A stretch of 63,458 bases of DNA, filler included, from an uncultured bacterium (GTDB lineage: Bacteria; DYJV01), in assembly GCA_964543655.1 (NCBI GenBank). It is 3 parts of 3 records of this genome, joined end to end, with 100 filler letters (N's around TTAATTAATTAA, not from the genome) between each part and the next. Parts side by side here need not be neighbours in the genome. Positions count along the whole stretch, not along the records: positions 40,440 to 63,458 come from CAZIZE010000063.1; 2 more parts are not named here. One strand, 5' to 3'. Below, piece by piece: positions 27,125 to 63,445 of this stretch (the first letter of the stretch is position 1; every line of letters begins with the position of its first letter). Made by a program: the position numbers and the translations under genes. The notes under the pieces were generated by a model. The model was not told the origin of the DNA. It did not search any database and was given only the letters and a program-made list of their open reading frames with translations.

Positions 27125-27267
27125 ATTAATAACTTATCAAAAATTTTGGATAAATTCAAGATGTAATTAGTCGTTAGACAATAGTTAATGAAAAGAAAAC
27201 TTTACACGATAAAAAATAGCAAAATTTTATAAAATAAATATATACATATAAAAAAAGCAGTTATAAT

Positions 27268-27331: not shown

Positions 27332-27459
27332 AGCTTTTATGGTAAACAGGAGCACTTGTAAAAAAATGCTGTTGGGTTTTAAATTTGCTTTTGTATTATT
27401 TATTCAAAATAGTCATTTTAGGTTTTGTTGTATCAAAAATATAATTTAATTAATTCACC

Positions 27460-40339: not shown

Positions 40340-40439
40340 NNNNNNNNNNNNNNNNNNNNNNNNNNNNNNNNNNNNNNNNNNNNTTAATTAATTAANNNNN
40401 NNNNNNNNNNNNNNNNNNNNNNNNNNNNNNNNNNNNNNN
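40340..40439. other. Assembly linker (N-run, TTAATTAATTAA, N-run)
   Basis: Linker at 40384-40395. Confidence 0.98.
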
Positions 40440-46111: not shown

Positions 46112-46207
46112 GTAAGATTAATAACATTCTATTTTAAGCATGGCAAGGGAAAAAAACTTGATTTTATTTTTTCTCTATTTTATATTAAGAAAAATAAGGA
46201 TATAGCC

Positions 46208-47566
46208 ATGACTATAGAAATTGATTATAATTTTTGTTTTTCAGATATTCTCCAGAAAGAGAAGTTATCTTTTGAGAAAATAAAAGATTTAGACTCAAAA
46301 GTTAATAATATCCATGAAAAGATTAATAGAGATAAAAAAGGTAAAGTTGGTTTTTACTCACTACCATTTCAGGAAATATCTACATTAGAAGAAATTTCAA
46401 AGAATTTTCAAGATAAATTTGATACCTGTGTTGTTCTTGGAATTGGTGGCTCAGCTCTTGGGACAATTGCTATTAAAAAAGCATTACTACCTATGTTTGG
46501 TAAAAAAGAAAAAAAACTTTACATTATTGACAATGTGGATCCAGAAGTAGTAACAGAATTTTTTGAATTTATTGATTTGAAGAAAACTTTTTTTGTTATA
46601 ATCAGTAAATCTGGCTCAACAGCAGAAACAATTAGCCAGTTTTTAATTATTAGAAAAATTTTAATTGAAAAATTTGGAATAAAAGGTTATAAAGAGCGTA
46701 CAGTTATAATTACAGATCCATACAAAGGAACGCTTCGTTCAGTAGCCAATGAAGAGGAACTTGTATCATTTGATATTCCAGAAAATGTTGGTGGTAGATT
46801 TTCTGTTTTAAGCGCAGTTGGATTATTCCCACTTTCATTTGCTGGTATTGATATTTCACAGCTATTGAATGGTGCAAAAGATTGTTATTATAAAACTGAA
46901 AATAATAATTTTACAAATAATTTAGCTTACTTTTCAGGGATGATACACTACCTTGCTTATGAGCAAGGTAAAAGTATTAATGTTTTAATGCCTTATTCAA
47001 GCAAATTGTATGGATTTGCAGACTGGTTTAGACAATTATGGGCAGAGAGTTTGGGTAAAAATGGTATTGGCCTAACACCAGTTAAAGCGCTTGGTACTAC
47101 AGATCAACACTCACAATTACAGTTGTATATTGATGGTCCAAAAGATAAATTAATCACTTTTATTAAAGTTAAAAATTTTCATAATGATACAACAATTCCG
47201 CAACAGGAAATAGATGATAGTTACAAATATTTATTTAATCATAAAATTAGTGAATTAATAAATTCTGCTGTTGATTCAACAAGGGTGGCTCTTGCAAAAA
47301 ATGGAGTTTTAAATTATACAATTATTTTAAGTGAAATCAATGCGTTTAATTTAGGCTGGTTAATATTTTATTATGAAGTTATGACCCATTTTACAGGTTA
47401 TTTATTTGAAATTAATCCATTTAATCAGCCTGGGGTAGAAATGAGTAAAAATTTTACCTATGGTTTAATGGGGAGAGAAGGGTATCAGAATAAAAAATTT
47501 GAATTTGAAAAAATTTTTAAAAATATTTCAAAAGATTTCGTAATTTCAGGAGATATAGATGGATGA
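46208..47566 (+). CDS. pgi: Glucose-6-phosphate isomerase
   Basis: GIGGSALG, SKSGSTAET, VGGRFSVLS, QLWAESLGK, TDQHS, NQPGVE; ATG 46208 follows AAGGA. Confidence 0.96.
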   Translation: MTIEIDYNFCFSDILQKEKLSFEKIKDLDSKVNNIHEKINRDKKGKVGFYSLPFQEISTLEEISKNFQDKFDTCVVLGIGGSALGTIAIKKALLPMFGKKEKKLYIIDNVDPEVVTEFFEFIDLKKTFFVIISKSGSTAETISQFLIIRKILIEKFGIKGYKERTVIITDPYKGTLRSVANEEELVSFDIPENVGGRFSVLSAVGLFPLSFAGIDISQLLNGAKDCYYKTENNNFTNNLAYFSGMIHYLAYEQGKSINVLMPYSSKLYGFADWFRQLWAESLGKNGIGLTPVKALGTTDQHSQLQLYIDGPKDKLITFIKVKNFHNDTTIPQQEIDDSYKYLFNHKISELINSAVDSTRVALAKNGVLNYTIILSEINAFNLGWLIFYYEVMTHFTGYLFEINPFNQPGVEMSKNFTYGLMGREGYQNKKFEFEKIFKNISKDFVISGDIDG

Positions 47567-50500
47567 TTCATTAAAGGAATTTCTTGAAGATTTTTTATCA
47601 GAGGCAGAGGAGCATCTTACAACTATTAACAATAATCTTCTGTCTATTGAGCAGCAATTTAAAGCTAATGGTGAAGTTGATGAAGAAAGTGTTAATTCAA
47701 TTTTCAGGGCTGTTCATACAATTAAAGGTCTTGCTGGAATGCTTGGGTTTGATAATGTTCAAATGCTTGCTCATGCTATGGAAGACCTTATGGGTGAAAT
47801 CAGGCAGGGTAGCAGGGGACTTTCAGAAAATATTTTAGATCTGTTATTTGAATCCACAGATGCTCTAAACCAGCAGATAGAAGAGATAAAAACCAAAGGA
47901 GAAGTTATTACTGATCCAACACCTTATGTAGAGAAACTACGAAATATATTAGATGGCACTGATACTAATGATGCTAATGATACATCAGAGGAAGTTAATG
48001 AAGCACCATCACTTGATTTTTTAGATTTTGATATTCCTGTTGAAAACTTTGTACCAAAAGAGATAGAAGCAGCAATATTAAAAGATGCAGTTGACAGAGA
48101 TTTAAATGTGTATATGGTAATTAAAGAGGTAACTTCAGATATTACTGAAGAAAAATTTAATAAATTACCAATTTTTAACGATATAGAAAAGGTAGGTGAG
48201 TTAATTTTTTATAGGCCTACTGTTGAAGAGATTAATAGCTCTAATAAATCTTCACTTTTTTGCTATTTTGTTTTTATGTCTGAGAAATCTTATGATGAAA
48301 TTAAAAACAACTTTTTTGATGAAATTAAAGTTTTAAGAGAAAGTTCAAAAAAAATAGAAAAAGAAGAAGAGGGAGAAACAATGGCAGATGAAAATGTTGA
48401 AGTTTTTAGATTAGCAGATACAGGATTTGACGAATCAATTGTAGCAGAATTTTTTGAGGAAGTTGATGAGTTAATAGAGAATCTTGATATGGATCTGCTT
48501 GAGCTTGAAAAAAATCCCGAAGATACAGAAATTTTAAATTCCATATTTAGAGCAGCTCATACCATTAAAGGTGCTTCATCTATGTTTGGTTTTGAGCCTA
48601 TTGTGAAGCTGACTCATGCTATGGAAAACCTTTTTGATAACTTGAGAAAGGGTGTGATGGTTGCTGATACTTACATTATGGATACATTTTTTGAGGGTAT
48701 TGATCTATTGAAAGATATGTTAAATTCTTTAAAAGAAGAGGGTATAATTGACCAGAATTATCTACCAATTGTTAAAAAGATCAATGAAATAATTGAAAAT
48801 CAGGGTGCACCTAAAGGTGCAAAAAGTGAAGCTGATATAAAAGAGGTTACTACAGATGAGCAACCTACAGCAGTTTCTACTTCTTCAGCTTCAATTGATT
48901 TGAATATAGATGAAGATTTTAAAAATTTTATTCCTTCAGAGGATATTGAAAAAATAAAAGAGGAAAAAGCAAAGGGCAATAACTTAATTTATATTAAAGT
49001 TGAATATCCAGAAGATATTTTAAAAAGTATTTTTAAACCATTTGAAGGTTTATTTACCGGGCTTGAAATAGCTGGAGATGTTGTATCTGTTTATCCTGAT
49101 ATAAGTAAGGTTCCTTTAATAGATGAATATGAGGTGGATAAATTCTATTTTTCTTTACAGATTATTTTATCATCTACTTCATCACTTGAAGATGTAAAAA
49201 TGTTGCTTGGTGGTTTTGAAGATACATTGAAAATGGAGTACCTTCCACTTGAAATAAAAGAGGCCAGTAGTAGTGTTGAAGAAGCACCCAAGCCTTCAGC
49301 ACAGGTTGAATCCAAGCCTGTACAAAAAGAGGAGCCACCTGCTGTAAAAGAAGAACCAAAGGTAGAACCTCAGCCTAAGCCGCAGGCTCAGCCACAACCA
49401 AAGCCACAAAAAGAACAACCCAAAAAAGTTGAAGCCAAAAAGCCTAAGGCTGACAATAAAAAAGAGGGAGCGAAAAAGAAGCTCACCTCAAATACAATTA
49501 GAGTTGACCTTGAAAGGCTTGATAAACTACTTAATCTTGTTGGAGAGTTTGTTATTGATAGAACAAGGTTTGCTCAAATCAGTCAGGAATTAAGAGAAAA
49601 GTATCCACATGATCCTCTGATTATGCAGCTAAATGAGACCAACCAGATATTTGGTAGGCATATGAATGAAATTCAAGAAGTTATTATGAGTGTGAGGATG
49701 ATTCCTATTGGGAATACATTCAATAAATATCCTCGTATAGTTAGGGATCTTGCAAGAGAGAGTGGTAAAGAGATTAATCTTGAAATTAGTGGGCAGGAAA
49801 CAGAACTTGATAAAACTCTTGTTGAAGAAATTGGTGATCCACTTGTTCACTTAATTAGAAATTCAGTTGACCATGGAATTGAGCCACCAGAGGAAAGAGT
49901 TAGAGTTGGAAAACCAAGAGTTGGTACAATTAAGCTATCAGCACATCATGAAGGTAACCATATTGTAATTTCAATATCTGATGATGGTAGGGGTATTGAC
50001 CCTGAAAAGATAAGAGCAAAAGCTATAGAAAGAGGATTGATTAAAGAGGATGATATTTTAACCAAAAAAGAGATTTTAAATCTAATTTTTGAGCCAGGTT
50101 TTTCAACTGCTGAAAAAGTTACCAATATTAGTGGCCGTGGTGTTGGTATGGATGTTGTCAAGAGAAACATTAGCAAATTAAAAGGTATAATTGATATAGA
50201 CACAGAAGTTGGGAAAGGTACAACAATTAGTATTAAATTGCCATTAACACTTGCAATTATTCAGGTTTTAATGGTTCAAGTTGCAAGTGAGATTTTTGCA
50301 GTTCCTTTACCTTCAATTATAGAGACAATTAGAATTAGCAAAGATGAAATTCAAAAAATTGAAGGTTATGAAATGATTACATTAAGAGACTCAGTGCTTC
50401 CAATTGCAAGATTAAAAGAAATATTCCAGTTAGATGATAAAAAATTAAAAGGTTCATTATCATATAACAATGAACTTGATACAGAGGACACTGGTAAATT

Positions 50501-50711
50501 TTTTATTGTAATTGTTGGACTTGCAGAGCATAGAGTAGGATTAATTGTTGATAAATTAATTACACAGCAGGAAGTTGTTATTAAATCTCTTGGTTCTCTT
50601 TTATCTCATGCAAAAGGTATAGCTGGTGCAACTATTTTAGGAAATGGTAAAGTTGCATTGATTCTTGATATTGCAGAAGTAATAGAAGATTCTAAACAAT
50701 TAAATGTATAA
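47559..50711 (+). CDS. cheA: Chemotaxis histidine kinase CheA with two tandem Hpt(+P2-like) modules
   Basis: FRAVHTIKG and FRAAHTIKG; TIRVDLERLDKLLNLVGE; HLIRNSVDHGIE; SGRGVGMDVV; CheW domain. Confidence 0.96.
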   Translation: MDDSLKEFLEDFLSEAEEHLTTINNNLLSIEQQFKANGEVDEESVNSIFRAVHTIKGLAGMLGFDNVQMLAHAMEDLMGEIRQGSRGLSENILDLLFESTDALNQQIEEIKTKGEVITDPTPYVEKLRNILDGTDTNDANDTSEEVNEAPSLDFLDFDIPVENFVPKEIEAAILKDAVDRDLNVYMVIKEVTSDITEEKFNKLPIFNDIEKVGELIFYRPTVEEINSSNKSSLFCYFVFMSEKSYDEIKNNFFDEIKVLRESSKKIEKEEEGETMADENVEVFRLADTGFDESIVAEFFEEVDELIENLDMDLLELEKNPEDTEILNSIFRAAHTIKGASSMFGFEPIVKLTHAMENLFDNLRKGVMVADTYIMDTFFEGIDLLKDMLNSLKEEGIIDQNYLPIVKKINEIIENQGAPKGAKSEADIKEVTTDEQPTAVSTSSASIDLNIDEDFKNFIPSEDIEKIKEEKAKGNNLIYIKVEYPEDILKSIFKPFEGLFTGLEIAGDVVSVYPDISKVPLIDEYEVDKFYFSLQIILSSTSSLEDVKMLLGGFEDTLKMEYLPLEIKEASSSVEEAPKPSAQVESKPVQKEEPPAVKEEPKVEPQPKPQAQPQPKPQKEQPKKVEAKKPKADNKKEGAKKKLTSNTIRVDLERLDKLLNLVGEFVIDRTRFAQISQELREKYPHDPLIMQLNETNQIFGRHMNEIQEVIMSVRMIPIGNTFNKYPRIVRDLARESGKEINLEISGQETELDKTLVEEIGDPLVHLIRNSVDHGIEPPEERVRVGKPRVGTIKLSAHHEGNHIVISISDDGRGIDPEKIRAKAIERGLIKEDDILTKKEILNLIFEPGFSTAEKVTNISGRGVGMDVVKRNISKLKGIIDIDTEVGKGTTISIKLPLTLAIIQVLMVQVASEIFAVPLPSIIETIRISKDEIQKIEGYEMITLRDSVLPIARLKEIFQLDDKKLKGSLSYNNELDTEDTGKFFIVIVGLAEHRVGLIVDKLITQQEVVIKSLGSLLSHAKGIAGATILGNGKVALILDIAEVIEDSKQLNV

Positions 50712-50736
50712 AAAATATTAAAAGGAGGAGATTATT

Positions 50737-51072
50737 ATGGAATTAAGTAAGAAGGTAGAGGGGAATATATTTATAATCAGTTTTGTTGGTAATCTGATTT
50801 TATCTGATCTTGAAAAAGCAAGAAAGTTTGTAAAAGATTGTATTGATTCTGAAAATGCAAATGAGATTATATTTGACCTTTCAGGAGTTGATTTTATTGA
50901 TTCAGCAGGTATAGGTTTTATTGTTTCTATTTTTAAAACAATAAAAGCAAAAAATGGTAAATTTGCAATTGCTGCTTTAAAATCAAAACCAAGAGAGGTA
51001 TTTAAATTAACAAGACTTGATAAAATTATTTCAATTTATGAGAATGTAGAGACAGCAAAACAGGAGTTATAA
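50737..51072 (+). CDS. STAS-domain anti-sigma-factor antagonist
   Basis: DLSGVDFIDSAGIG (phosphorylatable Ser), FKLTRLD. Confidence 0.9.
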   Translation: MELSKKVEGNIFIISFVGNLILSDLEKARKFVKDCIDSENANEIIFDLSGVDFIDSAGIGFIVSIFKTIKAKNGKFAIAALKSKPREVFKLTRLDKIISIYENVETAKQEL

Positions 51073-51073
51073 A

Positions 51074-51580
51074 ATGATTAAAGACAATTTATTGTCATTT
51101 AATGGTGATGCACAAGAATTTGAAGATAAAAATGTTCAATTTGAAAAAACCATTCAAATGGTGGGTTTTGAACTTGGCAGAGAAGAGTATATGGTTGATA
51201 TTAATAAAATCCGAGAAATAATTATGACCACAGAGATAACCTATGTGCCAAGGGTAGATGATTATTTTGAAGGTGTGATTAATCTCAGGGGAAATATTGT
51301 TCCAATTATTAATCTTAGAAAAAAACTTGGTATGGAATCACGTGAAATAACTCCTTCAACAAGAATTTTAATTATGGAAATTTTAGATATGAATGTGGGA
51401 TTTATTGTTGATAAAATAACCAAAGTTATTATTATACCAGAGAAAAATATTGATTCTACCCCTACTACCTTTGGTGGAATGGCAGCTGAATTTATTAATG
51501 GTGTTGGAAGATTTGAAAACAAGATAATTGGCTGGGTTAATGTTGAAAAAATTATTGAGAGTTGCATGGTAAATAAATAA
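51074..51580 (+). CDS. cheW: Chemotaxis coupling protein CheW
   Basis: FELGREEY..I..IREI, VP...EGVINLRG.IVPII.LR. Confidence 0.95.
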   Translation: MIKDNLLSFNGDAQEFEDKNVQFEKTIQMVGFELGREEYMVDINKIREIIMTTEITYVPRVDDYFEGVINLRGNIVPIINLRKKLGMESREITPSTRILIMEILDMNVGFIVDKITKVIIIPEKNIDSTPTTFGGMAAEFINGVGRFENKIIGWVNVEKIIESCMVNK

Positions 51581-53022
51581 TGGAGGTTGTATTAGGTATT
51601 GATTTTGGTACAACTAATTCAGTTGTTTCAGCAAGTATAGATTCAAAGCCAAATATTATTACAAATGAAGAGGGTGAAAAGATTATACCCTCTGTTGTTT
51701 CTTGCAATAAAAATAATGAGATTTTAATTGGTACCCCTGCAAAAAGGCAGGCAATAATTAATCCAGAGAGCACAATATCTTCTATTAAGAGGTTTATGGG
51801 GGAAAAGAGAAAGTTTAAACTTTGTAATAACTTTTATTTCCCCCATGAAATTGCAGCAAAAATTATAGCTTATCTTAAAGAAATAGCAGAAAAATCATTA
51901 TCAGAAAAAATCGATAAAGCAGTAATTACTGTTCCAGCATATTTTACCAATCAGCAGAGAAATGTTACAAAATTAGCTGGCAAAATAGCCGGGTTAAATG
52001 TGCTCAGAATTATTAATGAGCCTACAGCTGCAGCTCTTGCCTATGGTTTTGGTGAAGATTTTGAAGGTAAAATTATTGTTTTTGACTTTGGTGGAGGTAC
52101 TTTTGATGTATCAATTCTTGAAATCATAGATGGAGTATATGAAGTAATAGCAACTGCTGGTAATAATTTTTTAGGTGGAGATGATTTTGATTTTAAAATA
52201 GCAAACTTATTAATTGAAGATTTTAAAAATAAACATGGAATTAATCTAAAAGAAGATAAAATGGCTTTTCAGAAAATAAAGGAGGAAGCTGAAAAAGCCA
52301 AGATTCTTTTAAGCAGGCAAGATGAAGTTAAAATAAATATTCCATTTATTACAGCAGATGAGCATGGTGCAAAACATATTGAATATAATTTGACTATTTC
52401 TGAGTTTAATAGTTTAACAGAGGATTTAATTGAAGAAGCTATTAAATGCACTAAAAGGGCAATGTTAGATGCAAGATTGAAGCCTGAAGATATTGATGAA
52501 ATAATATTTGTAGGTGGTTCAACTAAGATAAAGCAATTTAGAGAGAGAATTTTTGACCTTATGAAAAAAGAGTGCAAAGACTCTGTTGACCCAATGCTCT
52601 GTGTTTCAATTGGTGCTGCACTTCAAGGAAATATAATCTTAGGTAATAGCAATAATCTTGTTCTCGTGGATGTTACACCATTAACTCTTGGTGTTGAAAC
52701 AAAGGGTGGGAAATTTACCCCAATTATTTTGAGAAATACAACAATTCCAGCCAAAGAGAGTAAGTTATTTACAACAATTAGAGATAATCAAACATCAGTT
52801 ACAGTAAATGTTTATCAGGGAGAGAGTGAATTTTGTATTAATAATACATTAATTGGCACAGTAAAGCTTGAGAATATCCCTTTTCAGCCTAAGGGTAAGC
52901 CAAGAATAGAGGTTGTATTTGATATTGATGTAGATGGAATACTTCATATTTCAGCTATTGATAGAAAGACAATGAAAAAACAGGAAATTACAATTGAATA
53001 TCCATTTATGGACAATATATAA
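51580..53022 (+). CDS. Hsp70-family (DnaK-like) protein lacking the helical lid (480 aa)
   Basis: GIDFGTTNS, INEPTAAALAYG, DFGGGTFDVS, LGGDDFD, linker LVLVDVTPLTLG, DNQTSV..VYQGE; ends right after SBD-beta. Confidence 0.92.
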   Translation: MEVVLGIDFGTTNSVVSASIDSKPNIITNEEGEKIIPSVVSCNKNNEILIGTPAKRQAIINPESTISSIKRFMGEKRKFKLCNNFYFPHEIAAKIIAYLKEIAEKSLSEKIDKAVITVPAYFTNQQRNVTKLAGKIAGLNVLRIINEPTAAALAYGFGEDFEGKIIVFDFGGGTFDVSILEIIDGVYEVIATAGNNFLGGDDFDFKIANLLIEDFKNKHGINLKEDKMAFQKIKEEAEKAKILLSRQDEVKINIPFITADEHGAKHIEYNLTISEFNSLTEDLIEEAIKCTKRAMLDARLKPEDIDEIIFVGGSTKIKQFRERIFDLMKKECKDSVDPMLCVSIGAALQGNIILGNSNNLVLVDVTPLTLGVETKGGKFTPIILRNTTIPAKESKLFTTIRDNQTSVTVNVYQGESEFCINNTLIGTVKLENIPFQPKGKPRIEVVFDIDVDGILHISAIDRKTMKKQEITIEYPFMDNI

Positions 53023-53943
53023 ATGAACAGAGGAGAGTGCCTTAAAATATTAAATTTAAATAAAAATGCTTCAATTGAAGATGTTAAAAGAGCATACAGG
53101 GCTCTTGTAAAAAAGTATCATCCAGATATTGCAGGTAAAAATGATTATTATGTTGAAAAATTTAGAACAATTACCAAAGCGTATAAAACATTAATTTCTC
53201 AAAATAACACTGTTACTTGCGAAAAAGATGAAAAAGATATTAAAGAAATTTTAAAAAACATAAAAAGTAAAATTGATAATTACATTAGTTTTTTTAAAAG
53301 AAAGAGAAGACAGGAGCCTTCAAATTTTAGTGGAATATTTTTAAAAGAAGTAGATTACAGATTAATTGAGATAGGAGAAGATGAGCTTATTTTAAGGCTT
53401 GCTGGTAGTAACAACTTTTATGTTATGGTAGAAGCAATAAAAGCTCTCTACAAAATTAATACAGAAAAGAGCTGTTCAGCTATTGTTGAAAATTATTATA
53501 AATACAATAAAGATTTGAGGATTTTTGTTTCTTTTTTATTAAGAAGGAAATTAAATTTGCTTGAAAACTTTTTAGAGGAAAGTATTAAATCAGATAATTA
53601 TAATTTGCTGATTTCTATACTTTCTTTTCTCTACTTTATTTATGGAGATTTTCCTGAAAAAAAATATATTGATATTTTTATTAAAGATAATTTAAATATT
53701 AGTAAGATAGAGTTATCAAAATATTTTGTAAAATATAAAAATATTTTTTCAAAAAATGAGTTAAAAATTGGAGAAAAATTACTTTTAATGGATAGATTAA
53801 ATAGAGATGAGTTATCAATTGCTCTTTCAATAAAAAATAAATTTCCTGCTATTAAAATAGGAAGAATTATTTCAGATTTAGGTTTTCTATCATACAAGGA
53901 GATAGAAGTTGTTATAAAAACCAAGACAATTTTCAATGATTAA
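53023..53943 (+). CDS. J-domain protein with helical middle region and C-terminal MshEN-like repeat
   Basis: VKRAYRALVKKYHPD; C-term KIGEKLL..L....L..AL..K-x5-KIGRII..LGFL. Confidence 0.8.
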   Translation: MNRGECLKILNLNKNASIEDVKRAYRALVKKYHPDIAGKNDYYVEKFRTITKAYKTLISQNNTVTCEKDEKDIKEILKNIKSKIDNYISFFKRKRRQEPSNFSGIFLKEVDYRLIEIGEDELILRLAGSNNFYVMVEAIKALYKINTEKSCSAIVENYYKYNKDLRIFVSFLLRRKLNLLENFLEESIKSDNYNLLISILSFLYFIYGDFPEKKYIDIFIKDNLNISKIELSKYFVKYKNIFSKNELKIGEKLLLMDRLNRDELSIALSIKNKFPAIKIGRIISDLGFLSYKEIEVVIKTKTIFND

Positions 53944-53952
53944 GGAATTTTT

Positions 53953-55290
53953 ATGATAATAGGATTTTTAAACTACAATTTTGATAGTAATGAATTTAAC
54001 ACTGTTAATTTAAAAAATTTATCAGAGATAAATAAGATTAAAGATCTGGAATATATTTTTATCTATGAAAAAAAAGCAGATGATTTTTCAAATACTTTAA
54101 AAGAACTGTTGAAAATAGCTCCATCAATAAAGTTTATCCCAATAGTGGATTCTCAAAATCTAAACATTATTCCAAGTTTAATGTCCATTGGAGCAATAAC
54201 ATTTGTAATTCCACCATTTGATGAAAATATAAAAAAGAACATAGAGAATCTTTTGAAAATTAATAAAAGAGAGAAACTTGATTTAAAAAAAGTAAGTATT
54301 TATAATGGCATTGTTGGTGCCAGTAAGCAAATGCAGGAGCTTTTTCAATTAATAGATAAAGTTTCTAAATCTGATTCTACTATTTTGATTACTGGAGAAA
54401 GTGGTACAGGTAAAGAATTAGTTGCAAAAGCTATATATAAAAATAGCAAAAGAAAAGATAAGTTATTCATTCCTATAAACTGTGGTGCAATACCAGAAGA
54501 TTTAATTGAAAGTGAATTATTTGGCTATTCAAAAGGGGCTTTTACAGGTGCAACTACAAATAAAATAGGTAAAATTCAAGCTGCAAATGAGGGGACTGTT
54601 TTTCTTGATGAAATAGGAGAAATGCCTCTTAACTTGCAGGTAAAGATTTTAAGGCTTTTGCAGGAGCGAGAGATTCAACCAGTTGGTGCTAATAAACCTG
54701 TTAAAGTGGATATTAGAATTATTGCAGCTACCAATAAAAATCTTGAAAAATTAGTGGAAGAAAAAAAGTTTAGAGAAGACCTTTTTTATAGATTAAATGT
54801 TATTCCTATTCATATTCCTCCTCTAAGAGAGCGAAAAGAAGATATCCCGCTGTTAGTGGATTATTTTTTTAAAAAATTTAGAGATAAATATGAAAAAAAT
54901 GATGAAATAGAAGGTTTTTCAGATGAAGCAATAATTTTACTTGAAAACTATGATTGGCCAGGTAATGTAAGAGAGCTTGAAAATGTTATTGAGCGAATAG
55001 TGGTTTTAAAAGAAGGAGGCACTATTTTACCATATGATTTGCCAAGTAAATTTTTTCAAAATGAATTTTTCAATGACATTACTCCACCAAATGATAAAGA
55101 GTATTTAAATTCCTTAATTAAGTTATCTGATGAAGGTATTAATTTAAAAGAGGTTATAGATAACCTTGAAACTAATCTTATTATGCAGGCTCTTGAAAAA
55201 GCTGGTGGAGTAAAAGAAAAAGCCGCAAAACTATTAAATATTAAACGGACTACATTAATAGAAAAATTGAAAAGAAAAAATCTAATGTGA
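53953..55290 (+). CDS. Sigma54-dependent enhancer-binding protein with degenerate receiver-like N-terminus (FleQ/FlrA-like)
   Basis: GESGTGKE, GAFTGA, FLDEIGE, WPGNVRELEN, HTH AAKLLNIKRTTLIEKLK. Confidence 0.88.
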   Translation: MIIGFLNYNFDSNEFNTVNLKNLSEINKIKDLEYIFIYEKKADDFSNTLKELLKIAPSIKFIPIVDSQNLNIIPSLMSIGAITFVIPPFDENIKKNIENLLKINKREKLDLKKVSIYNGIVGASKQMQELFQLIDKVSKSDSTILITGESGTGKELVAKAIYKNSKRKDKLFIPINCGAIPEDLIESELFGYSKGAFTGATTNKIGKIQAANEGTVFLDEIGEMPLNLQVKILRLLQEREIQPVGANKPVKVDIRIIAATNKNLEKLVEEKKFREDLFYRLNVIPIHIPPLRERKEDIPLLVDYFFKKFRDKYEKNDEIEGFSDEAIILLENYDWPGNVRELENVIERIVVLKEGGTILPYDLPSKFFQNEFFNDITPPNDKEYLNSLIKLSDEGINLKEVIDNLETNLIMQALEKAGGVKEKAAKLLNIKRTTLIEKLKRKNLM

Positions 55291-57785
55291 TGAGAAAATT
55301 TTTTTTTATCCTATTTTCTTTTTTTCTTATAACCAATCTTTTTTCTAAAAATTTAAATTACCTGCTTGATATAAAATATAGAGACTTTCCCAAAGAAAAA
55401 TTTGTTAGAATTGTATTTTATTTTACTTCACCACCACTATTCCAGGAGATTAGATTAAAAGATAAAAATAAGTTGGTTGTTACTTTAGATAATACTGATA
55501 TTCAAAATTTCTATGGGAATCTTAAAGTGCCATCAACTATTATAGACTCTTTTGACACTTTACAAAAAAAAAATTCTCTTATAGTAACAATTAATTTCAA
55601 AAGTTATGTAGATAGATTTTCCACTATAAAATCAAAATCACCACCTCTACTATATCTTAAAGTTTATGTAACCAATGTAAAGCCTGTTGAAAAACCAAAA
55701 ATTAATAAAAAGCAGGGTAATGTTACAATTTCTGAGAATAAAACAGCTACTACTCTTAAAACTCCACAAGAAATTTTAAAGCAGATTAAGAAAAAAAAGA
55801 AAATAAAAAAGATTATTAAGAAAAAAGTAACAGTTAAAGAAGTTGTTACAAAAGCTCAAATAAATAAAATGAGGAATATATATGAGCAAGGTTTAAGCTT
55901 AATGGCTGATAAGAAATATAATGAAGCTATTAATGTTTTTAAATCAATTATCTCATCAGCTAAAAAAAAGAATCCATATTATATAAAATCAAGGTTTAGA
56001 ATTTTAGATTGTTATTATTACCTGCTTAAGCCCAATGATATTCATGGATTAATGAATTTAGCCTATGCATACCAGGATTTAATAGCAGCCTATCCTAAAT
56101 CTGACGAAGCTGCCTGGGCTGCATTTCAAATGGCAAATTGTTATGAAAAGCTTGGTTTTTTAGAGGAAGCACTTGGGTCATTCAGGTTTGTTACAAAATA
56201 TTATCCAAAATCTATTTTTTCTGCAACAGCTTTTCTCCATTTAAGTGACATTTTATACAAAATGAAAAGATATTCAGAAGCGTTAGAAAATTATAAAAAA
56301 ATTATGATGAAATACCCTCAAAGTATTTTAGCAATTAAAGCTAATTATTACATAGCCAATTGTTTATATCATTTAAAACAGTATAGTAGAGCGCTAAATG
56401 TTTTTAAAGAAGCAATTAAAAAAGCACCTAAATTTTTAAATAAAGACCCAGAAACACTATATAATATTGGTAATACCTATTTTTATTTGAAGAAATATCC
56501 TTATGCAAGGGAGTATTTTTTAAAAATAAGGAATCTTTTTCCAAAAAGTGAGTTTTTTGACCTGGCACTTATGAAAATAGGTGAGACCTATGTGAAGGAG
56601 AAGGATTTTAAAGCAGCGTTATACGTTTTTAAAAGGGTAATAGATGTTAGTAAAGATAAAGAAAAAATTATTATTGCAAGGTTAGAGCTTGCTGATATTG
56701 GACTATCCGGGATAATTAAAGATAAGAATTTAATAAAAAAATATTATAATTATATAAATCCAGAAATTGCTTATAATTATATTATTAAAAATTTTCCAAA
56801 ACATAAATTGACTCAAATTGCTTTTTCAAGATTAGTCGGTTATTTTCTTGATAAAAAGAGATTTCAAGATGCTGTTGATTATTTAGAAGAGTTTTACAAA
56901 AGGTTTCCCAATTCTAAAATAAAAGATAGTATGGATAAAAAGATGTATAAGGCACTTTATGGATTAATAGATTTATCTTTTAAAAATAAAAATTATCAAA
57001 AAATAATTTTTTATTATGAAAAGTATAACAAAACATTTTTAAAAGAAGTAAAGCCACTTAATGTTTTTAAAGATATTTATTTTTCTTATAAAAATCTTGA
57101 CCTAACTGTTGCTGCTAATAGATTATTAAAGAAATTATTAAAAAGTTATAAAAATGATGCTGATTTAAATTTTGAAAAAATAGTTACAGAGATTAATAAT
57201 AAAGAGTATAAAAAAGCAGTTAAAGATATTAATCTATTTTATAAAAGATATAAAAAATCAAACTATTTGCCAAAATTAAAATTTTTAAAAGCTATCTGTT
57301 ACAGTAAATTAAGTTACTTTAAGGAAGCACTTAATATATTTTTTGATATTCTTGATAATAATCCTTCAAATAAAAGTGAAATTTTATTCAATATTGCTGA
57401 AATTTATAGAAATTCCGGTGATTTAAATAATGCACTTAAATTTTACAAATTAATAAATGAAAATACAGAGCAGGAGCATATAGAGAAAGATATTCAGATA
57501 AATTCGTATTTTTACATAGGTTATATTAATTATCTATTGAAAAATTATAAAGATGCTGTTATTAATTTAGAAGCTTTTGTAAAGTTATATCCAGATGATT
57601 ATAGAGTTGATGAAATAAATTATTATATTCTTAACTGTTTTTACCATTTAAAAGAGTACAATAAAGCAATTGCTTATTTTAGTAAAATTAAAGGAAGTTT
57701 TAAAGATAAAAATTTTCTAAAATTATCAGAAGAAGTTTTAGAAAATATAAAATGGGTGAATTCATTTAAAAGCAATGGAAAATAA
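55287..57785 (+). CDS. Exported TPR-repeat protein with AMIN-like N-terminal domain
   Basis: Signal peptide; beta-rich VRIVFYF..LVVTLDNT; many Y..A..Y...YP.S TPR repeats. Confidence 0.8.
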   Translation: MMRKFFFILFSFFLITNLFSKNLNYLLDIKYRDFPKEKFVRIVFYFTSPPLFQEIRLKDKNKLVVTLDNTDIQNFYGNLKVPSTIIDSFDTLQKKNSLIVTINFKSYVDRFSTIKSKSPPLLYLKVYVTNVKPVEKPKINKKQGNVTISENKTATTLKTPQEILKQIKKKKKIKKIIKKKVTVKEVVTKAQINKMRNIYEQGLSLMADKKYNEAINVFKSIISSAKKKNPYYIKSRFRILDCYYYLLKPNDIHGLMNLAYAYQDLIAAYPKSDEAAWAAFQMANCYEKLGFLEEALGSFRFVTKYYPKSIFSATAFLHLSDILYKMKRYSEALENYKKIMMKYPQSILAIKANYYIANCLYHLKQYSRALNVFKEAIKKAPKFLNKDPETLYNIGNTYFYLKKYPYAREYFLKIRNLFPKSEFFDLALMKIGETYVKEKDFKAALYVFKRVIDVSKDKEKIIIARLELADIGLSGIIKDKNLIKKYYNYINPEIAYNYIIKNFPKHKLTQIAFSRLVGYFLDKKRFQDAVDYLEEFYKRFPNSKIKDSMDKKMYKALYGLIDLSFKNKNYQKIIFYYEKYNKTFLKEVKPLNVFKDIYFSYKNLDLTVAANRLLKKLLKSYKNDADLNFEKIVTEINNKEYKKAVKDINLFYKRYKKSNYLPKLKFLKAICYSKLSYFKEALNIFFDILDNNPSNKSEILFNIAEIYRNSGDLNNALKFYKLINENTEQEHIEKDIQINSYFYIGYINYLLKNYKDAVINLEAFVKLYPDDYRVDEINYYILNCFYHLKEYNKAIAYFSKIKGSFKDKNFLKLSEEVLENIKWVNSFKSNGK

Positions 57786-59154
57786 CATAGTTATTATTAG
57801 TGAGGATATATCTTTTTTATCAGAGTTGGGGAATATAATAAAAGCATTTAACTTTAAACCTCTTTTATTTGAAAAAATAGAGGAAGGTTTTAAATATCTT
57901 GAGTCTCACAAACCCTATCTTGTTATTTCTGACCTATTTTTTAAAGGTTTTAAACCTGATGACATTTGGAATAGGTTTAAGTTATTAAACATAGAAAATA
58001 TTTTAATAATATCAGACAATCCTGATACCAATATTGGGACAAAAGTTATTCAGGAAGGAGCCCTTGATTATATTTTAAAACCAATAGAAGTTGAGCAGAT
58101 TAGATTATTGCTTGCAAAATTAAAAATTAAAAAAAAGAGAACAATAACTGATTTTAGAAAAATAGTAACAAATAATCCTAAAATGTTAATGGTATTAAAG
58201 ATAGCAGAAAATGCAGCTAAGAGCCGTTCAACTGTTCTAATTAAAGGAGAAAGTGGTGTTGGAAAAGAACTTATTGCAAGAATGATTCATGAAAAAAGCA
58301 GCAGGGCAAATGAACCATTTGTTGCAGTAAATTGCGCTGCTCTCCCTGAAACATTACTTGAGAGTGAGCTTTTTGGCCATGAAAAGGGCTCTTTTACTGG
58401 TGCAATATCTACAAAACCAGGTAAATTTGAGCTTGCCAATAATGGCACAATACTACTTGATGAAATTACAGAAATGAATTTTCCATTGCAGGCAAAATTA
58501 TTAAGAGTTTTACAAGAAAGAGAAATAGACAGAATAGGAGGGAGAGAACCAATAAAACTTGATATACGTATTATTGCAACAACTAACAGGGATATGAAGC
58601 AAATTATTGCTGAGAAAAAATTTAGAGAAGATTTATACTATAGATTAAATGTAATTCCTTTGCATATTCCACCACTTAGAGAGAGAAAAGATGATATACC
58701 ACTTCTAACAAAACATTTTATTAGAAAGCATTCAGCTCTAAATAATATACAGGAGAAGGAGATTTCTGATTCTGCGTTAAAAAAGCTTGCTAAATATGAC
58801 TGGCCTGGTAATATTAGAGAGCTTGAAAATATTATTGAAAGGGCAGTTGTGATTTGTCCTTCACATATTATTGATGAAAACTTTATAATATTTGAGGATG
58901 AAATTGAATCTATTTATGAATTTAGTGAAAATGTAGTTGCTCTTGAAAGTAGTAAAGCCAAAGATATTTCCCAAGAGGAATCTCTATCAGTTAAGCCTGG
59001 AACCACCATAGCAGAAATGGAGAAAAAATTAATCCTTGAGACTTTAAAATCTGTTAATGCCAATAGAACAGTTGCAGCTGAGCTTCTTGGAATAAGTGTA
59101 AGAACTTTAAGAAATAAACTAAATGAGTATAAAAAATCAGGAATAGAAATTTAA
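57775..59154 (+). CDS. Sigma54-dependent response regulator (FlrC/FleR/FlgR-like)
   Basis: Receiver (ISED, VISD, DYILKP), GESGVGKE, GSFTGA, HTH LGISVRTLRNKLNEY. Confidence 0.9.
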   Translation: MENNIVIISEDISFLSELGNIIKAFNFKPLLFEKIEEGFKYLESHKPYLVISDLFFKGFKPDDIWNRFKLLNIENILIISDNPDTNIGTKVIQEGALDYILKPIEVEQIRLLLAKLKIKKKRTITDFRKIVTNNPKMLMVLKIAENAAKSRSTVLIKGESGVGKELIARMIHEKSSRANEPFVAVNCAALPETLLESELFGHEKGSFTGAISTKPGKFELANNGTILLDEITEMNFPLQAKLLRVLQEREIDRIGGREPIKLDIRIIATTNRDMKQIIAEKKFREDLYYRLNVIPLHIPPLRERKDDIPLLTKHFIRKHSALNNIQEKEISDSALKKLAKYDWPGNIRELENIIERAVVICPSHIIDENFIIFEDEIESIYEFSENVVALESSKAKDISQEESLSVKPGTTIAEMEKKLILETLKSVNANRTVAAELLGISVRTLRNKLNEYKKSGIEI

Positions 59155-61688
59155 TTTTCTGATAAAACTTCTTTTATCTCAATGGCAATTTTTTTAAGGG
59201 TTAAAGGTTTTTTTAAAAATTTTTTTGCTCCCAATTTTAAAGCATTATCAATATTATTTTCAGAATAAAAGCCACTCATAATTATTGCTTTTTGATGAGG
59301 GTACTTTTCCAAAATAATTTTCAGAGTTTCAAATCCGCTGATTCCTGGTTCCATAACAAGATCAATTATAACAATTTCAATCTTATTTTTATTAAGAAAA
59401 AAAATTGCATCTTCTCCTGATTTACAGGTAAAAACTTTATAATTTAACATTGTTAATAAGCTTGAATATATTTCCAGTTGCTCCTCTTCATCATCAACAA
59501 TTAAAATTTTTTCTCCATTCCCTTTTAATTTATTAATTTCTTCTTTTGTATCTTCTCTAATTAATTTTTTCCGTGTTGCAGGGAAAAATAGCTCAAAAGT
59601 TGTACCATTTTTATCAGATGATACTTTAATACCACCATCATGGTCATGTACCGTATTCCATACCACTGCAAGACCAAGTCCGGTGCCACTTTTTTTAGTT
59701 GCTTTCTTTTTGGAAAAAAATGGTTCAAAGATTCTGTCAATATATTCTTCAGGAATTCCTTCACCGGTATCAGATATTGATAAAACAACATACTCTCCTT
59801 TTTTTAGAAATTGGTTTTTTGGTAAGGGTTTATCAACATACTGATTTCTTGTGGAAATAATTATTTTCCCTTTTCCTTTTATTGATTCAGCAGCATTGTG
59901 AACAAGATTCATTAAACTTTTCTTTATATGTACTGGTGAGCAGTATATATTTAATAAATCTTTTTCCAGGTTCAATTCTACAGATACATTTAGATGGTCT
60001 TTAAAGAAATTTTTAAATTCATCTGAATCAATATACTCTTTTATAATATCATTTAAGGAAGCAATCTCTTTTTTTGCACTAACTCCTCGAGCAATTGTTA
60101 GTAAGTCCATTACTATTTCAGATGCTTTTTTACCGGATCTCTTAATTGCTTCAACGTATTTTCTAACTGGAGAATCGTCAGGTAATTTCATTAAAATCAA
60201 ATCCGGGTATCCTAAAATAGTTGATAAAATATTATTCAAATCGTGTGCAACTCCACTTGCCATTAAACCAATAGCTTCCATTTTTTCAGCTCTAATAAGT
60301 TTTTTTCCTAAAATCTTTTCTTGAGTAATATCTCTACCAAAAACAATTAAGGCTTTTCTTGAGCCATCTAAATGAAATAGAGGAACTTTAATTACATCAA
60401 AGATTTTTTTTCCACCGTCAATTGTTGGAATTGTTTCTTCATTTCTAATGAGAGTTTTATTTTTCCATGCTTTTTCATCACTTTGATAACATGTTTTAAA
60501 AGCTTCTTTAAAAACAGGATGAGTGTAATTAGCAAGTTCAAGGTCAGTTTTACCTCTATAATCAACATTTGTAAGTTGAAATAATTCCAAATCTGCTTTG
60601 TTTGCTTCAACCCACCTACCTTCACCATCTTTAAAACATATAATATCTGGAGTAGCATTTATTAACGTTCTTAAACGTTCTTCATTTTCTTTTAATTGCT
60701 TAGTTTTTAATTGAACCAGTTTTTCTATTTTTTTTCTTCTTCTGTTAGTTTCAATTCTAAAAAGAACTATCCAGAGTGCTATAAAAATAAAGATAATAGT
60801 AAAGGTAGTAACAACAGATAGGGTCACAAGTTTGGCAGTGGATAAACCACGGAGCATAATATCCCTTGTAAACTTTGCTTTAATTAGTAGCAGTGGCTTT
60901 TTATTGATGTCACGAACTATAGTATAGCCTAATAAAATGTTATTATTTTTCTCAATAAATATATAATGTTTAAGTAAAACTTTTTTTGCAATTTTACGTT
61001 CTTTTTCAGGAATATTTTTTTTTGTTAAATCCATTAAAGTAAAATGAATATTCATCTGTTTTGAGAGAGTTTGAATTATATTTTTATGAAGGAAACGACC
61101 CATAACAAAGATTCCTCTACTTGGCCCTTTACCTGAGCTTTTAAGAATTTGTTGAAGAGTAATTAAAAGAGGACCATTTTCAGTAGAGATAATACCAGAA
61201 ATTCCACCCTTTTTTTTAAATAACTTTATTAAAGGGTCTGAACTACAAAAATTTTTTGAAAATCTTTTTAATTGAATGTTTTTATTAAGAATTTTATCAT
61301 GGATACCATGCCAGATTGTTCTACCATTATTGGAGCAGATAAAGATAAGTTCTATACCACTTGCATTGAGACTTTCCCATTGAAAATTTGATATTTCATA
61401 AGCTTTATCTTTCTCCTTTACATATTTATAAGTGTCATCCCAGTAAGCCCAATCTTTGGAAATTTGCATTAAATGAAAAACTTCCCTCTGGATGGCATTC
61501 TTGATTCTATTAAGATCTTTTTGAGCTTTTTCTCTTTCAAGCTCTGAAAAAGCAGGGATTATAATTTTATAGCTTAAAAAATAATTACCTGTAATTTCAA
61601 ACAACAGAATAAGGGCGATAAATATTAAAAGAGATTTATAGGGGCTTAAAAAAATTTTTTTTATTAAATTTTTATTAAAACTATCCAT
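59151..61688 (-). CDS. Hybrid sensor kinase (TM-CHASE4-TM-PAS-HisKA-HATPase-REC)
   Basis: DWAYWDDTY, PAS region KDGEGRW..AN, GVAHDLNN, GTGLGLA, ILIVDDEE..IDLVM. Confidence 0.9.
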   Translation of the reverse strand: MDSFNKNLIKKIFLSPYKSLLIFIALILLFEITGNYFLSYKIIIPAFSELEREKAQKDLNRIKNAIQREVFHLMQISKDWAYWDDTYKYVKEKDKAYEISNFQWESLNASGIELIFICSNNGRTIWHGIHDKILNKNIQLKRFSKNFCSSDPLIKLFKKKGGISGIISTENGPLLITLQQILKSSGKGPSRGIFVMGRFLHKNIIQTLSKQMNIHFTLMDLTKKNIPEKERKIAKKVLLKHYIFIEKNNNILLGYTIVRDINKKPLLLIKAKFTRDIMLRGLSTAKLVTLSVVTTFTIIFIFIALWIVLFRIETNRRRKKIEKLVQLKTKQLKENEERLRTLINATPDIICFKDGEGRWVEANKADLELFQLTNVDYRGKTDLELANYTHPVFKEAFKTCYQSDEKAWKNKTLIRNEETIPTIDGGKKIFDVIKVPLFHLDGSRKALIVFGRDITQEKILGKKLIRAEKMEAIGLMASGVAHDLNNILSTILGYPDLILMKLPDDSPVRKYVEAIKRSGKKASEIVMDLLTIARGVSAKKEIASLNDIIKEYIDSDEFKNFFKDHLNVSVELNLEKDLLNIYCSPVHIKKSLMNLVHNAAESIKGKGKIIISTRNQYVDKPLPKNQFLKKGEYVVLSISDTGEGIPEEYIDRIFEPFFSKKKATKKSGTGLGLAVVWNTVHDHDGGIKVSSDKNGTTFELFFPATRKKLIREDTKEEINKLKGNGEKILIVDDEEEQLEIYSSLLTMLNYKVFTCKSGEDAIFFLNKNKIEIVIIDLVMEPGISGFETLKIILEKYPHQKAIIMSGFYSENNIDNALKLGAKKFLKKPLTLKKIAIEIKEVLSEN

Positions 61689-61785
61689 AAGAATTAAATT
61701 AGAAATTTTGTATTTTGTTAGAAATTAAAACAAAATATATTTACATTTTTTTTAAACAAATGTCCAGTATTTTAACATGAACAAA

Positions 61786-61802
61786 CTGGCATTTAAATTG
61801 CT
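61786..61802 (+). promoter_or_regulatory. Sigma54 (-24/-12) promoter of flgF
   Basis: CTGGCATTTAAATTGCT = TGGC-N7-TTGC, about 30 nt upstream of the flgF ATG. Confidence 0.85.
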
Positions 61803-61833
61803 TGATTGAATAAAAAACAGATTAGGAGCAAAA

Positions 61834-62622
61834 ATGAATCATGCCATTTATACTGCATTATCAGGGGCAATAGCAAATGACAAAAGGTTTGATATTGTTA
61901 GTAATAATCTTGCAAATGCTAATACTACAGGCTTTAAAAAAAGCAGGGTTTCTTTTGCTTCAATGTTACCAGTTCAAGATGAAGAAACAAAGAAAATAAA
62001 TGAAAATAGAGATGTTCCTGACAATTTCAAAAAGGGAGTGTTTAATACTTTTACTTATGTGAATAAGGTGAAAACAGACTTTTCTCAAGGATATTTAAAG
62101 GAAACAGGTAATGATTTTGATTTTGCAATAAATGGAGATGGTTTTTTTGTTGTTAAAGATGGAAAAGGAAATGTAAAATATACAAGGGATGGAAACTTTG
62201 TGGTTAACAATAATGGAACACTTGTAGATAGAGATGGTGATCAGGTTCTTGACACCAATAATAATCCTATTAAAATTCCAACTGAAAATGTAAAGTTTGT
62301 AAATGTAGATGAAAAAGGGAATATTTATGTAAATGATAATTTAGTTGCCAAGATGGCAGTTGTTGATTTTCAGGATAAAAGTAAACTCAGCAGAATAGGT
62401 AATAACAAATTTATTAACACAGATAAAAATATACAACCAAAAGAGAGTAAAAATTATAGTGTGTATCAAGGGTATTTGGAAGGTTCAAATATTAACATAG
62501 TCAAAGAAATGACAGCTTTAATAGAAATAATGAGGTCTTATGAAGCTACCCAGAAAGTTATAACTACAATAGATACCCAGATTGATCAAAGAGCTGTTAA
62601 TGATGTTGGAAGAATAGTATAA
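61834..62622 (+). CDS. flgF: Flagellar basal-body rod protein FlgF
   Basis: IYTALSG, NNLANANTTGFK, TGNDFDFAI.GDGFF, YTRDGNF, LEGSN. Confidence 0.9.
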   Translation: MNHAIYTALSGAIANDKRFDIVSNNLANANTTGFKKSRVSFASMLPVQDEETKKINENRDVPDNFKKGVFNTFTYVNKVKTDFSQGYLKETGNDFDFAINGDGFFVVKDGKGNVKYTRDGNFVVNNNGTLVDRDGDQVLDTNNNPIKIPTENVKFVNVDEKGNIYVNDNLVAKMAVVDFQDKSKLSRIGNNKFINTDKNIQPKESKNYSVYQGYLEGSNINIVKEMTALIEIMRSYEATQKVITTIDTQIDQRAVNDVGRIV

Positions 62623-62656
62623 TTTAATATTCATAAAAATTTAAGGAGGATTAAAA

Positions 62657-63445
62657 ATGTTTAGAGGTTTATGGACAGCTGCAACAGGTATGATAACACA
62701 GCAAACAAATATTGATGTAATTGCAAATAATCTTGCAAATGTAAATACAGCTGGTTTTAAAAAATCAAGGGCAAATTTTGAGGATCTCATTTATCAGACT
62801 TTTAAACATCCTGGGACATTGACAAGCTCTGGAAATGAAATCCCCACAGGAATTCAAATAGGCCACGGAGCAAAAACAACTTCTGTTGAAAAGATTTTTA
62901 CTGAAGGTAATCTCCAGCATACAGGAAATCAACTTGATCTTGCCATTGAGGGAAAAGGTTTTTTTAAAATTACAATGCCTGATGGTACAGAAGCTTACAC
63001 CCGTGATGGTGGTTTTAAAATTGATAGTACAGGACAGCTTGTTACTGCAAATGGTTATAAATTATCACCTGCAATTGTAATACCTAATGATACAACAAAT
63101 ATTACCATTTCTGAAGATGGCACAGTTTCTGTGCTTCAAGCTGGTCAAACATCTATGACTCAGGTTGGAAATATTACTCTTACAACTTTTTTAAACCCTT
63201 CTGGTTTGAAATCAATTGGTAAAAATCTTTTTAAAGAAACTGGAGCAAGTGGCAGTCCTAATGAAGTTACACCTGGAACAAATGGTGCAGGAACAATTGC
63301 TCAAGGATTCTTAGAAATGTCAAATGTTAGTGTTGTTGAAGAAATGGTTAATATGATTACTGGTCAGAGAGCATATGAAGTAAATTCAAAAACAGTGCAA
63401 ACAGCAGATTCAATGCTTCAAACTGCTATAAATGTGAAGAGATAA
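62657..63445 (+). CDS. flgG: Flagellar basal-body rod protein FlgG
   Basis: [54 protein letters not shown]. Confidence 0.97.

Follow-up and report, generated by a model that had tools for sequence, protein, structure and literature searches.

A conserved lidless Hsp70 and an adjacent J-domain protein encoded within a chemosensory and flagellar-regulator gene run of an uncultured bacterium

The window considered here, a 63,458-nucleotide stretch of DNA from an uncultured bacterium (GTDB lineage DYJV01; GenBank assembly GCA_964543655.1, hereafter G000), contains a run of nine genes in which a lidless Hsp70 and a J-domain protein are encoded directly after the chemosensory gene cheW, and directly before the first of two genes for sigma54-dependent enhancer-binding proteins (EBPs). 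Comparative studies indicated that these two genes constitute a real, conserved and apparently undescribed Hsp70/J pair attached to flagellar chemotaxis. It is probable that the pair is devoted to flagellar motility, broadly understood, and, because it tracks the chemosensory core within this bacterial order, the CheA-CheW-receptor array is its most likely client, a narrower proposal of a motility-dedicated pair acting on the array to which we would give about an even chance. Cognate pairing of the two proteins, ATPase activity, the identity of the client and nucleotide gating are all features that we infer.

Since the window consists of three contigs (C59, C61 and C63) joined through N spacers at 26572-26671 and 40340-40439, adjacency across those contigs is artificial; the nine-gene run lies entirely within one of them, the 96.5-kb contig C63, of a genome with a completeness of 94%. 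All nine open reading frames (ORFs) are on the + strand (46208-59154) with Pfam assignments that agree with the gene identities, and the closely spaced co-directional arrangement described in an initial annotation of this DNA was confirmed, the successive intergenic distances being −8, 25, 1, −1, 0, 9, −4 and −11 nt. A simple scan of positions 45400-62000 returned 11 terminator-like sites, none of which coincides with a boundary between two genes of the run. The locus is laid out as a fusion of a chemosensory core (cheA-cheW) with a flagellar-regulator block (STAS-EBP1-TPR-EBP2), the Hsp70/J pair being situated inside the core.

The initial annotation had proposed synteny in relatives as a check, and comparison with five other species of the same order (G001-G005, making six genomes in all) confirmed that the pair-bearing block is conserved in three of the six (G000, G002 and G005). 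All nine genes occur in the same order in G002, a member of the same family, and eight of them in G005, a member of another family in which EBP2 is not adjacent; no gap exceeds 25 nt in either genome. Two further species retain the flanking genes without the core: G004 has pgi-STAS-EBP1-TPR (gaps of 25 and 3 nt, with EBP2 not next to TPR), and G003 has STAS-EBP1-TPR-EBP2 across two contigs, with a STAS-EBP1 gap of 15 nt and one contig starting just 5' of STAS, such that the position of cheA lies off it. Searches by tblastn found no remnant of cheA, cheW, hsp70 or the J gene at either locus, and no ortholog of this cheA, cheW, hsp70 or J gene was found genome-wide in G003 or G004. As sequence identities place G003 closer to G000 and G004 closer to G005, two independent losses are indicated. 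None of the six genomes has the pair without this CheA, and the databases yielded equal numbers of full-length J-proteins, lidless Hsp70s and close CheA orthologs (nine of each), several of them on contigs of equal length, which is indirect evidence that they occur together. Other parts of the pathway co-vary with this CheA, namely a HEAT-cheR-cheB-cheY cluster found intact only in G000, G002 and G005, CheV, and long methyl-accepting chemotaxis proteins (MCPs); matches to the MCP signalling domain numbered 13, 8 and 9 in those three genomes respectively, as against 1 in G003 and 2 in G004. The pair therefore follows the chemosensory core and not the sigma54 activators, and this pattern of co-loss, together with the flagellar context of a related pair in a distant phylum (described below), bears out the tie to motility that had initially been suggested.

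The same comparison bears on the other principal suggestion of the initial annotation, that the pair remodels either an EBP or the CheA/CheW complex and thereby couples the kinase to sigma54-dependent flagellar transcription. In favour of an action on EBP1 or EBP2 are the single apparent operon, the phospho-Asp carried by EBP2 of G000, the known remodelling of regulators by DnaK, and a sigma54-type site (TGGCA-N6-TTGC) located 32 nt 5' of flgF and 2.6 kb past the run, as initially reported, which is one of three exact consensus matches in the window. However, STAS, TPR and EBP1 (intact in G004, frameshifted in G003) are still found where both the pair and this CheA are missing, as is EBP2 in G003; in neither G005 nor G004 does EBP2 adjoin TPR; G002 and G003 have T or A in place of the receiver Lys of EBP2; and no EBP gene lies near the related pair of the distant phylum. 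The TPR protein, with an N-terminal hydrophobic stretch (identified by eye) and an AMIN domain, looks exported. Neither EBP reached an NCBIfam cut-off that would back the initial labels FleQ/FlrA-like and FlrC-like, and G000 contains 13 EBP-type ORFs. While remodelling of CheA/CheW fits the co-loss, the persistence of the regulators without the pair and the unconserved receiver Lys make an action on the EBPs, or a coupling of CheA to sigma54-dependent transcription, very improbable.

As initially noted, no cheY, cheB, cheR, MCP, grpE or hrcA gene lies inside the run, but all are present elsewhere in G000, and the initial picture of a non-canonical kinase lacking CheY and MCP partners is not supported. 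Genome-wide, cheA and cheB are each present in three copies, cheR in at least three, and MCP genes number around a dozen: the HEAT-cheR-cheB-cheY cluster is on contig C90, with no cheA there, a further cheY is on C63 at 38 kb downstream of the run, and there are two CheV-like genes. The chemosensory pathway is accordingly dispersed, not incomplete. The Pfam scan confirmed the two Hpt domains previously assigned to CheA, and both Hpt histidines (H53 and H333) are kept in the nine lineage orthologs. The second is lost in seven of seven aligned distant two-Hpt CheA relatives, one of them named as Nitrospinae; the nearest named CheA matches are from Nitrospinae, Oligoflexia and Silvanigrellales. 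Since some 93% of multi-Hpt CheAs belong to the ACF or Tfp class, according to Berry 2023, the form found here is uncommon.

The long transmembrane receptors of the pathway have a HAMP-Glu-to-tip-Glu distance of 269 residues, versus 143 in Tsr, equivalent to 36 heptads per arm (~72H) in seven of the seven long receptors of G000 and in one each from G002 and G003. The G000 genes are on contigs C13, C24, C25, C31, C53, C77 and C96; the loci recorded for receptors of this length also include L202:1-2619 and L108:5350-8484. The accessible text of one source gives 64H as the longest receptor class described (PMC8235581), and that of another contains a class written as '40+24H' (PMC3543383). Judged by heptad counts, the 72H receptors, exactly twice the Tsr length and longer than 64H, possibly represent an unrecorded length class.

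The Hsp70 has the elements expected of its superfamily, an actin-like nucleotide-binding domain (NBD) with phosphate-1 and phosphate-2 motifs, a hydrophobic linker, and the beta part of the substrate-binding domain (SBD-beta); its Pfam HSP70 match (565 bits) covers profile positions 1-497 of 599, and its structure model matches DnaK NBD plus SBD-beta (2v7y). Among the best 120 of 7,994 matches in a homolog search, nine proteins (480-482 aa, 63-100% identity) are orthologs, and the next best are full-length Bacillota-type DnaKs with around 55% identity. All nine orthologs end at the same place, just past SBD-beta, with a short conserved hydrophobic tail; the lid is thus absent by descent, and the initial designation of the protein as lidless holds. 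The phosphate motifs, the hydrophobic linker and the equivalents of D8, K70, P143, R151, R167, E171 and T199 (E. coli DnaK numbering) are retained in nine of nine. The long subdomain-IIB loop is likewise retained, and the 24-aa subdomain-IB insert of the host DnaK is absent. The substrate arch is altered, with Leu/Met replaced by Lys in seven of the nine and Ala by Ile/Val in all of them; going by its sequence, the protein probably has an altered choice of substrate and perhaps faster nucleotide exchange.

The protein scored 617.5 bits against the housekeeping DnaK model TIGR02350, for which the cut-off is 822.55. The full-length dnaK of G000 is the only other Hsp70 gene in the genome, and is located on contig C57 in an hrcA-grpE-dnaK-dnaJ locus (hrcA and grpE being recognised from position and sequence, not by family scan), an arrangement that sustains the initial view of a dedicated, non-housekeeping pair. 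With the run on one contig and the housekeeping locus separate, the possibilities that the gene is mis-assembled or is the only dnaK of the genome were rejected. A broken Hsp70-J fusion or premature stop was also rejected, on the evidence of the common end point in all nine orthologs and of hsp70-J gaps of 6 nt in G002 and 1 nt in G005, as was a role as an HscA/HscB-type Fe-S chaperone (455.9 bits against an HscA cut-off of 708.55, with a J-HEAT-MshEN protein as the partner). A NifU_N gene is present 5' of pgi in G002 (L016:3710-4102), G005 (L017:12859-13254) and G004 (L019:6386-6799), not in G000; its retention in G004 without the pair counts against an Fe-S link. The TPR protein is unlikely to be a cytosolic co-chaperone of the Hsp70, given its probable export and its persistence without the pair.

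The J-protein contains HEAT and MshEN-like domains that had initially been overlooked. It is of class C, with an HPD-containing J-domain, no G/F region or zinc finger, and further, presumably client-specific, domains. In its AlphaFold2 (AF2) model the J-domain is joined by a loose linker to a HEAT-like repeat, after which comes a four-helix tail. Nine of 13 database matches are full-length orthologs, and the HPD motif is invariant across three alignments. A profile built from 11 J-protein sequences matched the GSPII domain of PilF (6f8l) with E 1.5e-12, and residues 244-304 of the model aligned to c-di-GMP-bound MshE (5htl; Z 6.6, rmsd 3.2, 58 residues) and to PilF (8pdk; Z 6.0), Z values that are middling taken alone; the modelled fold of the tail is MshEN-like, in keeping with the MshEN/GSPII domain type, which is defined by a tandem RLG-type motif and a four-helix fold. 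A Foldseek search with the model returned nothing at E <= 0.001, and an atlas search gave a single lead (0.84) for the C-terminal part. Wider distribution was assessed with a J profile (E <= 1e-22), which matched six of 401 genomes: G000, G002, G005 and three of a distant phylum. A second sample of 400 genomes, mostly the same ones, yielded nothing more, the phylum of G041 gave no match to the J profile in 301 genomes, and a plasmid search no match; a wider contig scan returned only generic J-domain matches (80 loci kept of 531).

The three genomes of the distant phylum, which are all that were examined from it (G033, G503 and G654; loci L209-L211), each contain a second full-length DnaK gene (dnaK2) followed within 3-9 nt by a gene for a J-HEAT protein of 255-264 aa without the MshEN tail. 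The cluster order is fapA-(motA-motB)-dnaK2-J-flgF-flgG-flgA-flgH-flgI...flgK-flgL-fliW-fliC, with the mot genes beside the pair in G654 and G033, not in G503. Both DnaK2 and the lidless Hsp70 lack the IB insert of the host housekeeping DnaK, and two quickly built trees, of 30 and 20 rows with six and four of the nine lidless proteins respectively, placed them together on one side of a branch with 96-97% support in the Shimodaira-Hasegawa-like approximate likelihood ratio test (SH-aLRT). The approximately unbiased (AU) test rejected grouping of the lidless family with host DnaK (p 0.0125), and with it a recent duplication of the host dnaK.

A pair of this kind might therefore be considered to work not on the array but on the flagellar machine itself, through stator loading, the C-ring and switch, export or rod assembly, with the adjacency to cheW being secondary. 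The position of dnaK2 and J between fapA/(mot) and flgF-flgG in three of three distant genomes, at 0 nt from motB in G654, favours such a function, as do the start of flgF-flgG just 2.6 kb past the run in the present genome and the action of cyanobacterial DnaK1 at a pilus motor. Its weak point is that G003 and G004, which retain flgF/flgE-type genes and fliM, keep their flagellar genes without the pair, and hence flagella in this order can be built in its absence. Overall we regard a flagellar-machine client as rather unlikely, and rate no more highly the corollary that G003 and G004 lost the pair since switching or tuning of the motor had become unnecessary.

A number of observations nonetheless tell against the array as client. 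In the distant phylum no che gene was found within ~10 kb of DnaK2/J, a setting more suggestive of the motor or basal body than of the array; moreover, the long stems in the quick trees allow long-branch attraction, so that the link to DnaK2 is suggestive only. Within the order, cheW, hsp70 and the J gene are contiguous and only two loss events were seen, such that a single deletion could have removed all three. Nor were the losses complete across the pathway: a motor-type CheY (72%), a single CheV and a single long MCP remain in G003, and a diverged cheR-cheB in G004; the frameshifted EBP1 ortholog of G003 (L018:388-1729) is either a pseudogene or an assembly error in a genome whose flagellar genes are kept. 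G001 lacks the whole locus and flgG, fliM being present, and is therefore uninformative. In all nine Hsp70 orthologs, the equivalents of the adenine-pocket residues R345 and D368/E369 are changed, so the ATPase cycle may be atypical. Marine J-HEAT-MshEN homologs (L111-L190) had no hsp70, che or EBP neighbour at any of 80 loci (80 of 98 kept, 44 of at least 5 kb), and the J architecture must therefore also work without this partner; these marine proteins sit among housekeeping genes and have better-kept motif glutamines. Finally, MshEN c-di-GMP receptors are described in Wang 2016 as making contacts through Arg, Gly and Gln residues of two motifs, each 24 residues long, with a spacer of 5 residues, and when eight J orthologs were searched with a relaxed form of the motif none had both halves, two had motif II only and six had neither. 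The site has Gln replaced by Lys, the motif-I Gly lost, and a spacer of 6 residues. The presence in G000 of 11 GGDEF-motif and four HD-GYP-motif ORFs, as counted by regular expression, makes c-di-GMP a plausible ligand; its binding by the tail is considered rather unlikely.

Equally to be weighed is the possibility that the genes are merely an Hsp70/J cassette acquired by transfer, which has some unrelated client, came to lie in the operon by chance and was deleted along with cheW through adjacency alone. The Bacillota-type DnaKs that head the matches outside the family (~55% identity), the occurrence of lidless DnaK-like clusters of ~460-490 aa in Thermodesulfobacteriota, Myxococcota and Actinomycetota, the orphan status of the marine J homologs, and the presence of pgi as another passenger in the run are all compatible with this account. 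Nevertheless, in two independent lineages the pair disappeared together with cheA and cheW although the flanking STAS and EBP1 genes were kept, the pair was never encountered without this CheA in the order, its GC content at third codon positions (GC3) matches that of the neighbouring genes, and a related pair occurs again among motility genes in another phylum. A passenger origin is consequently considered improbable.

If the array is indeed the client, the HEAT part of the J-protein would dock on this native complex of CheA, CheW and double-length (~72-heptad) receptors, and the HPD J-domain would then stimulate its cognate Hsp70 to hydrolyse ATP. Lacking a lid, the SBD-beta could quickly grip and release an exposed segment of the client, and such rapid cycles would serve to assemble, position or remodel the complex and not to refold it, the MshEN-like tail perhaps acting as either a c-di-GMP gate or a docking module. 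A bolder version, that an undescribed flagellum-associated Hsp70/J-HEAT family exists in at least two small phyla and is represented here by a lidless, MshEN-tailed, c-di-GMP-gated and ATP-driven remodeller of the array in a pathway whose 72H receptors form a new class, is on balance unlikely.

The nearest working counterparts are found in Myxococcus and in cyanobacteria. DnaK paralogs tied to motility or exopolysaccharide signalling occur in Myxococcus xanthus (SglK/MxDnaK2 and StkA), although we know of none there that is embedded between cheW and sigma54 EBP genes. These proteins resemble the present Hsp70 in being motility-linked DnaK paralogs of delta-type bacteria, but MxDnaK2 retains the lid and lacks only the C-terminal tail (PMC11019930). 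In cyanobacteria, the DnaK1/DnaJ3 pair of Nostoc punctiforme acts at the pilus motor, its cognate pairing having first been inferred from co-occurrence (PMC9239167), and DnaK1 of Synechococcus elongatus UTEX 3055, with DnaJ1 and GrpE, binds the chemosensory regulator PixG and PilB (PMC13710413). The likeness is that of a non-essential DnaK paralog and cognate J-protein dedicated to motility, demonstrated for the cyanobacteria and proposed here; compared by description only, from the parts of those papers available, the cyanobacterial systems differ in serving type IV pili, with no cheA-cheW operon, missing lid or HEAT/MshEN partner described. In G654 of the distant phylum, a ParA - TPR - Hsp70 (499 aa) trio at L218:101-2991 immediately precedes a receptor gene, and a triple CheW lies at some distance beyond. 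This Hsp70 is also lid-less and at chemosensory genes, but belongs to another family (35% identity) and has ParA and TPR partners and no J-protein. An analogous eukaryotic case is the ribosome-associated complex of Ssz1/HSPA14 and Zuo1/MPP11, in which a naturally lidless Hsp70 and a class C J-protein serve one machine; Ssz1 is reported not to hydrolyse ATP. Both cases combine a lidless Hsp70 and a class C partner, yet the present pair is bacterial and its catalytic residues are kept, and the parallel is no more than an analogy.

As regards the chemosensory genes, the deltaproteobacterial beta-group clusters, to which the class F10 label and an association with 64H receptors apply, are the closest comparison, and the present system is a possible member. 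The long G000 receptors, with 36 heptads per arm in all seven, depart from the 64H type. In common are the absence of mcp from the genes around cheA and cheW, a HEAT gene accompanying cheR-cheB, and receptors of great length; the present pathway differs in having cheR/cheB on another contig (C90), ~72 heptads versus 64, two Hpt-P2 units, and CheV. The accessible portion of the relevant account (Tran 2008, PMC2577667) makes no mention of dnaK for these clusters. The architecture reported here was not found described in the literature searched, a set without most subscription papers; PMC8396549 and PMC6194562 contributed nothing to the matter. Although pilus motility is known to have Hsp70/J pairs of its own, to our knowledge none has been recognised that is encoded, and lost, with a flagellar chemotaxis pathway.

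Should the pair act on the array or the motor, it would show clearly how ATP can drive the remodelling of a signalling complex in its native state and, were the bolder version true, flagellar chemotaxis would have a chaperone among its core signalling components. This Hsp70, lidless by nature and with its allosteric residues intact, offers a means of asking what the lid does, and is accompanied by a J-protein that may read c-di-GMP. The second, unrelated lid-less Hsp70 at a chemosensory cluster suggests repeated recruitment of Hsp70s to chemosensory systems. The carriers found so far are rare genomes.

Coordinates of the genes of the run, of domains within the J-protein, and of the downstream flagellar features (positions in the window)
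Feature	Coordinates	Strand	Basis and remarks
pgi, glucose-6-phosphate isomerase	46208..47566	+	Pfam PGI; neighbour in G002, G004, G005
cheA, (Hpt-P2-like)x2-P3-P4-P5	47559..50711	+	Pfam 2 Hpt, P2, dimerisation, HATPase, CheW
STAS anti-anti-sigma-like protein	50737..51072	+	Pfam STAS; conserved D-S-A-G serine
cheW	51074..51580	+	Pfam CheW; 1-nt overlap with hsp70 start, in G000 and G002
Lidless Hsp70, 480 aa (NBD + linker + SBD-beta)	51580..53022	+	Pfam HSP70
Class C J-domain protein, 306 aa	53023..53943	+	Begins immediately 3' of hsp70 stop codon
J domain, intact HPD, aa 8-60	53044..53202	+	Pfam DnaJ, E 1.9e-14
HEAT-like helical repeat, ~aa 110-225	53350..53697	+	AF2 model; HEAT_2 in distant homologs; alphaRep/HEAT PDB profile matches
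MshEN/GSPII-like four-helix domain, aa 244-304, degenerate c-di-GMP motif	53752..53934	+	Profile and structure matches
sigma54 EBP1, GAFTGA, degenerate receiver-like N-terminus	53953..55290	+	Pfam Sigma54_activat
TPR + AMIN protein, probably exported	55287..57785	+	Pfam TPR, AMIN
sigma54 EBP2, REC-AAA-HTH, GSFTGA	57775..59154	+	Pfam REC-Sigma54; FlbD the best NCBIfam match, under cut-off
sigma54-type -24/-12 site	61787..61801	+	Consensus match only, 5' of flgF
flgF-flgG, first genes of flagellar run	61834..63445	+	Pfam

Since pgi is kept in G004 without che genes, it is considered to be a leader gene outside the module. A CHASE4-PAS hybrid histidine kinase gene lies on the - strand at 59151-61688, between the run and flgF; as neither G002 nor G003 has this convergent gene in the corresponding position, it was rejected as a module member. 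A cheY - HEAT protein - RsbW-like HATPase_c_2 protein group was located at L200:1493-3618 (G000:C63:56292-58417), the RsbW-like protein being a candidate kinase partner for the STAS protein of the run. An F9-like cluster at L024 (G000:C43:2644-14537) comprises a double-signal MCP, a triple CheW and HEAT; a link to the pair was rejected, the cluster being present only in G000 among the six genomes, without an Hsp70 and with no co-variation. A sigma70 scan gave results at chance level (107 against 95.8). In the G000 assembly fliM/fliN were not found, whereas fliM is present in all five relatives, which probably reflects an assembly gap. Repeats of ~330 bp and ~100 bp occur in the window at 26846-27409, with 85-90% copies on ~10 other contigs, often near contig ends.

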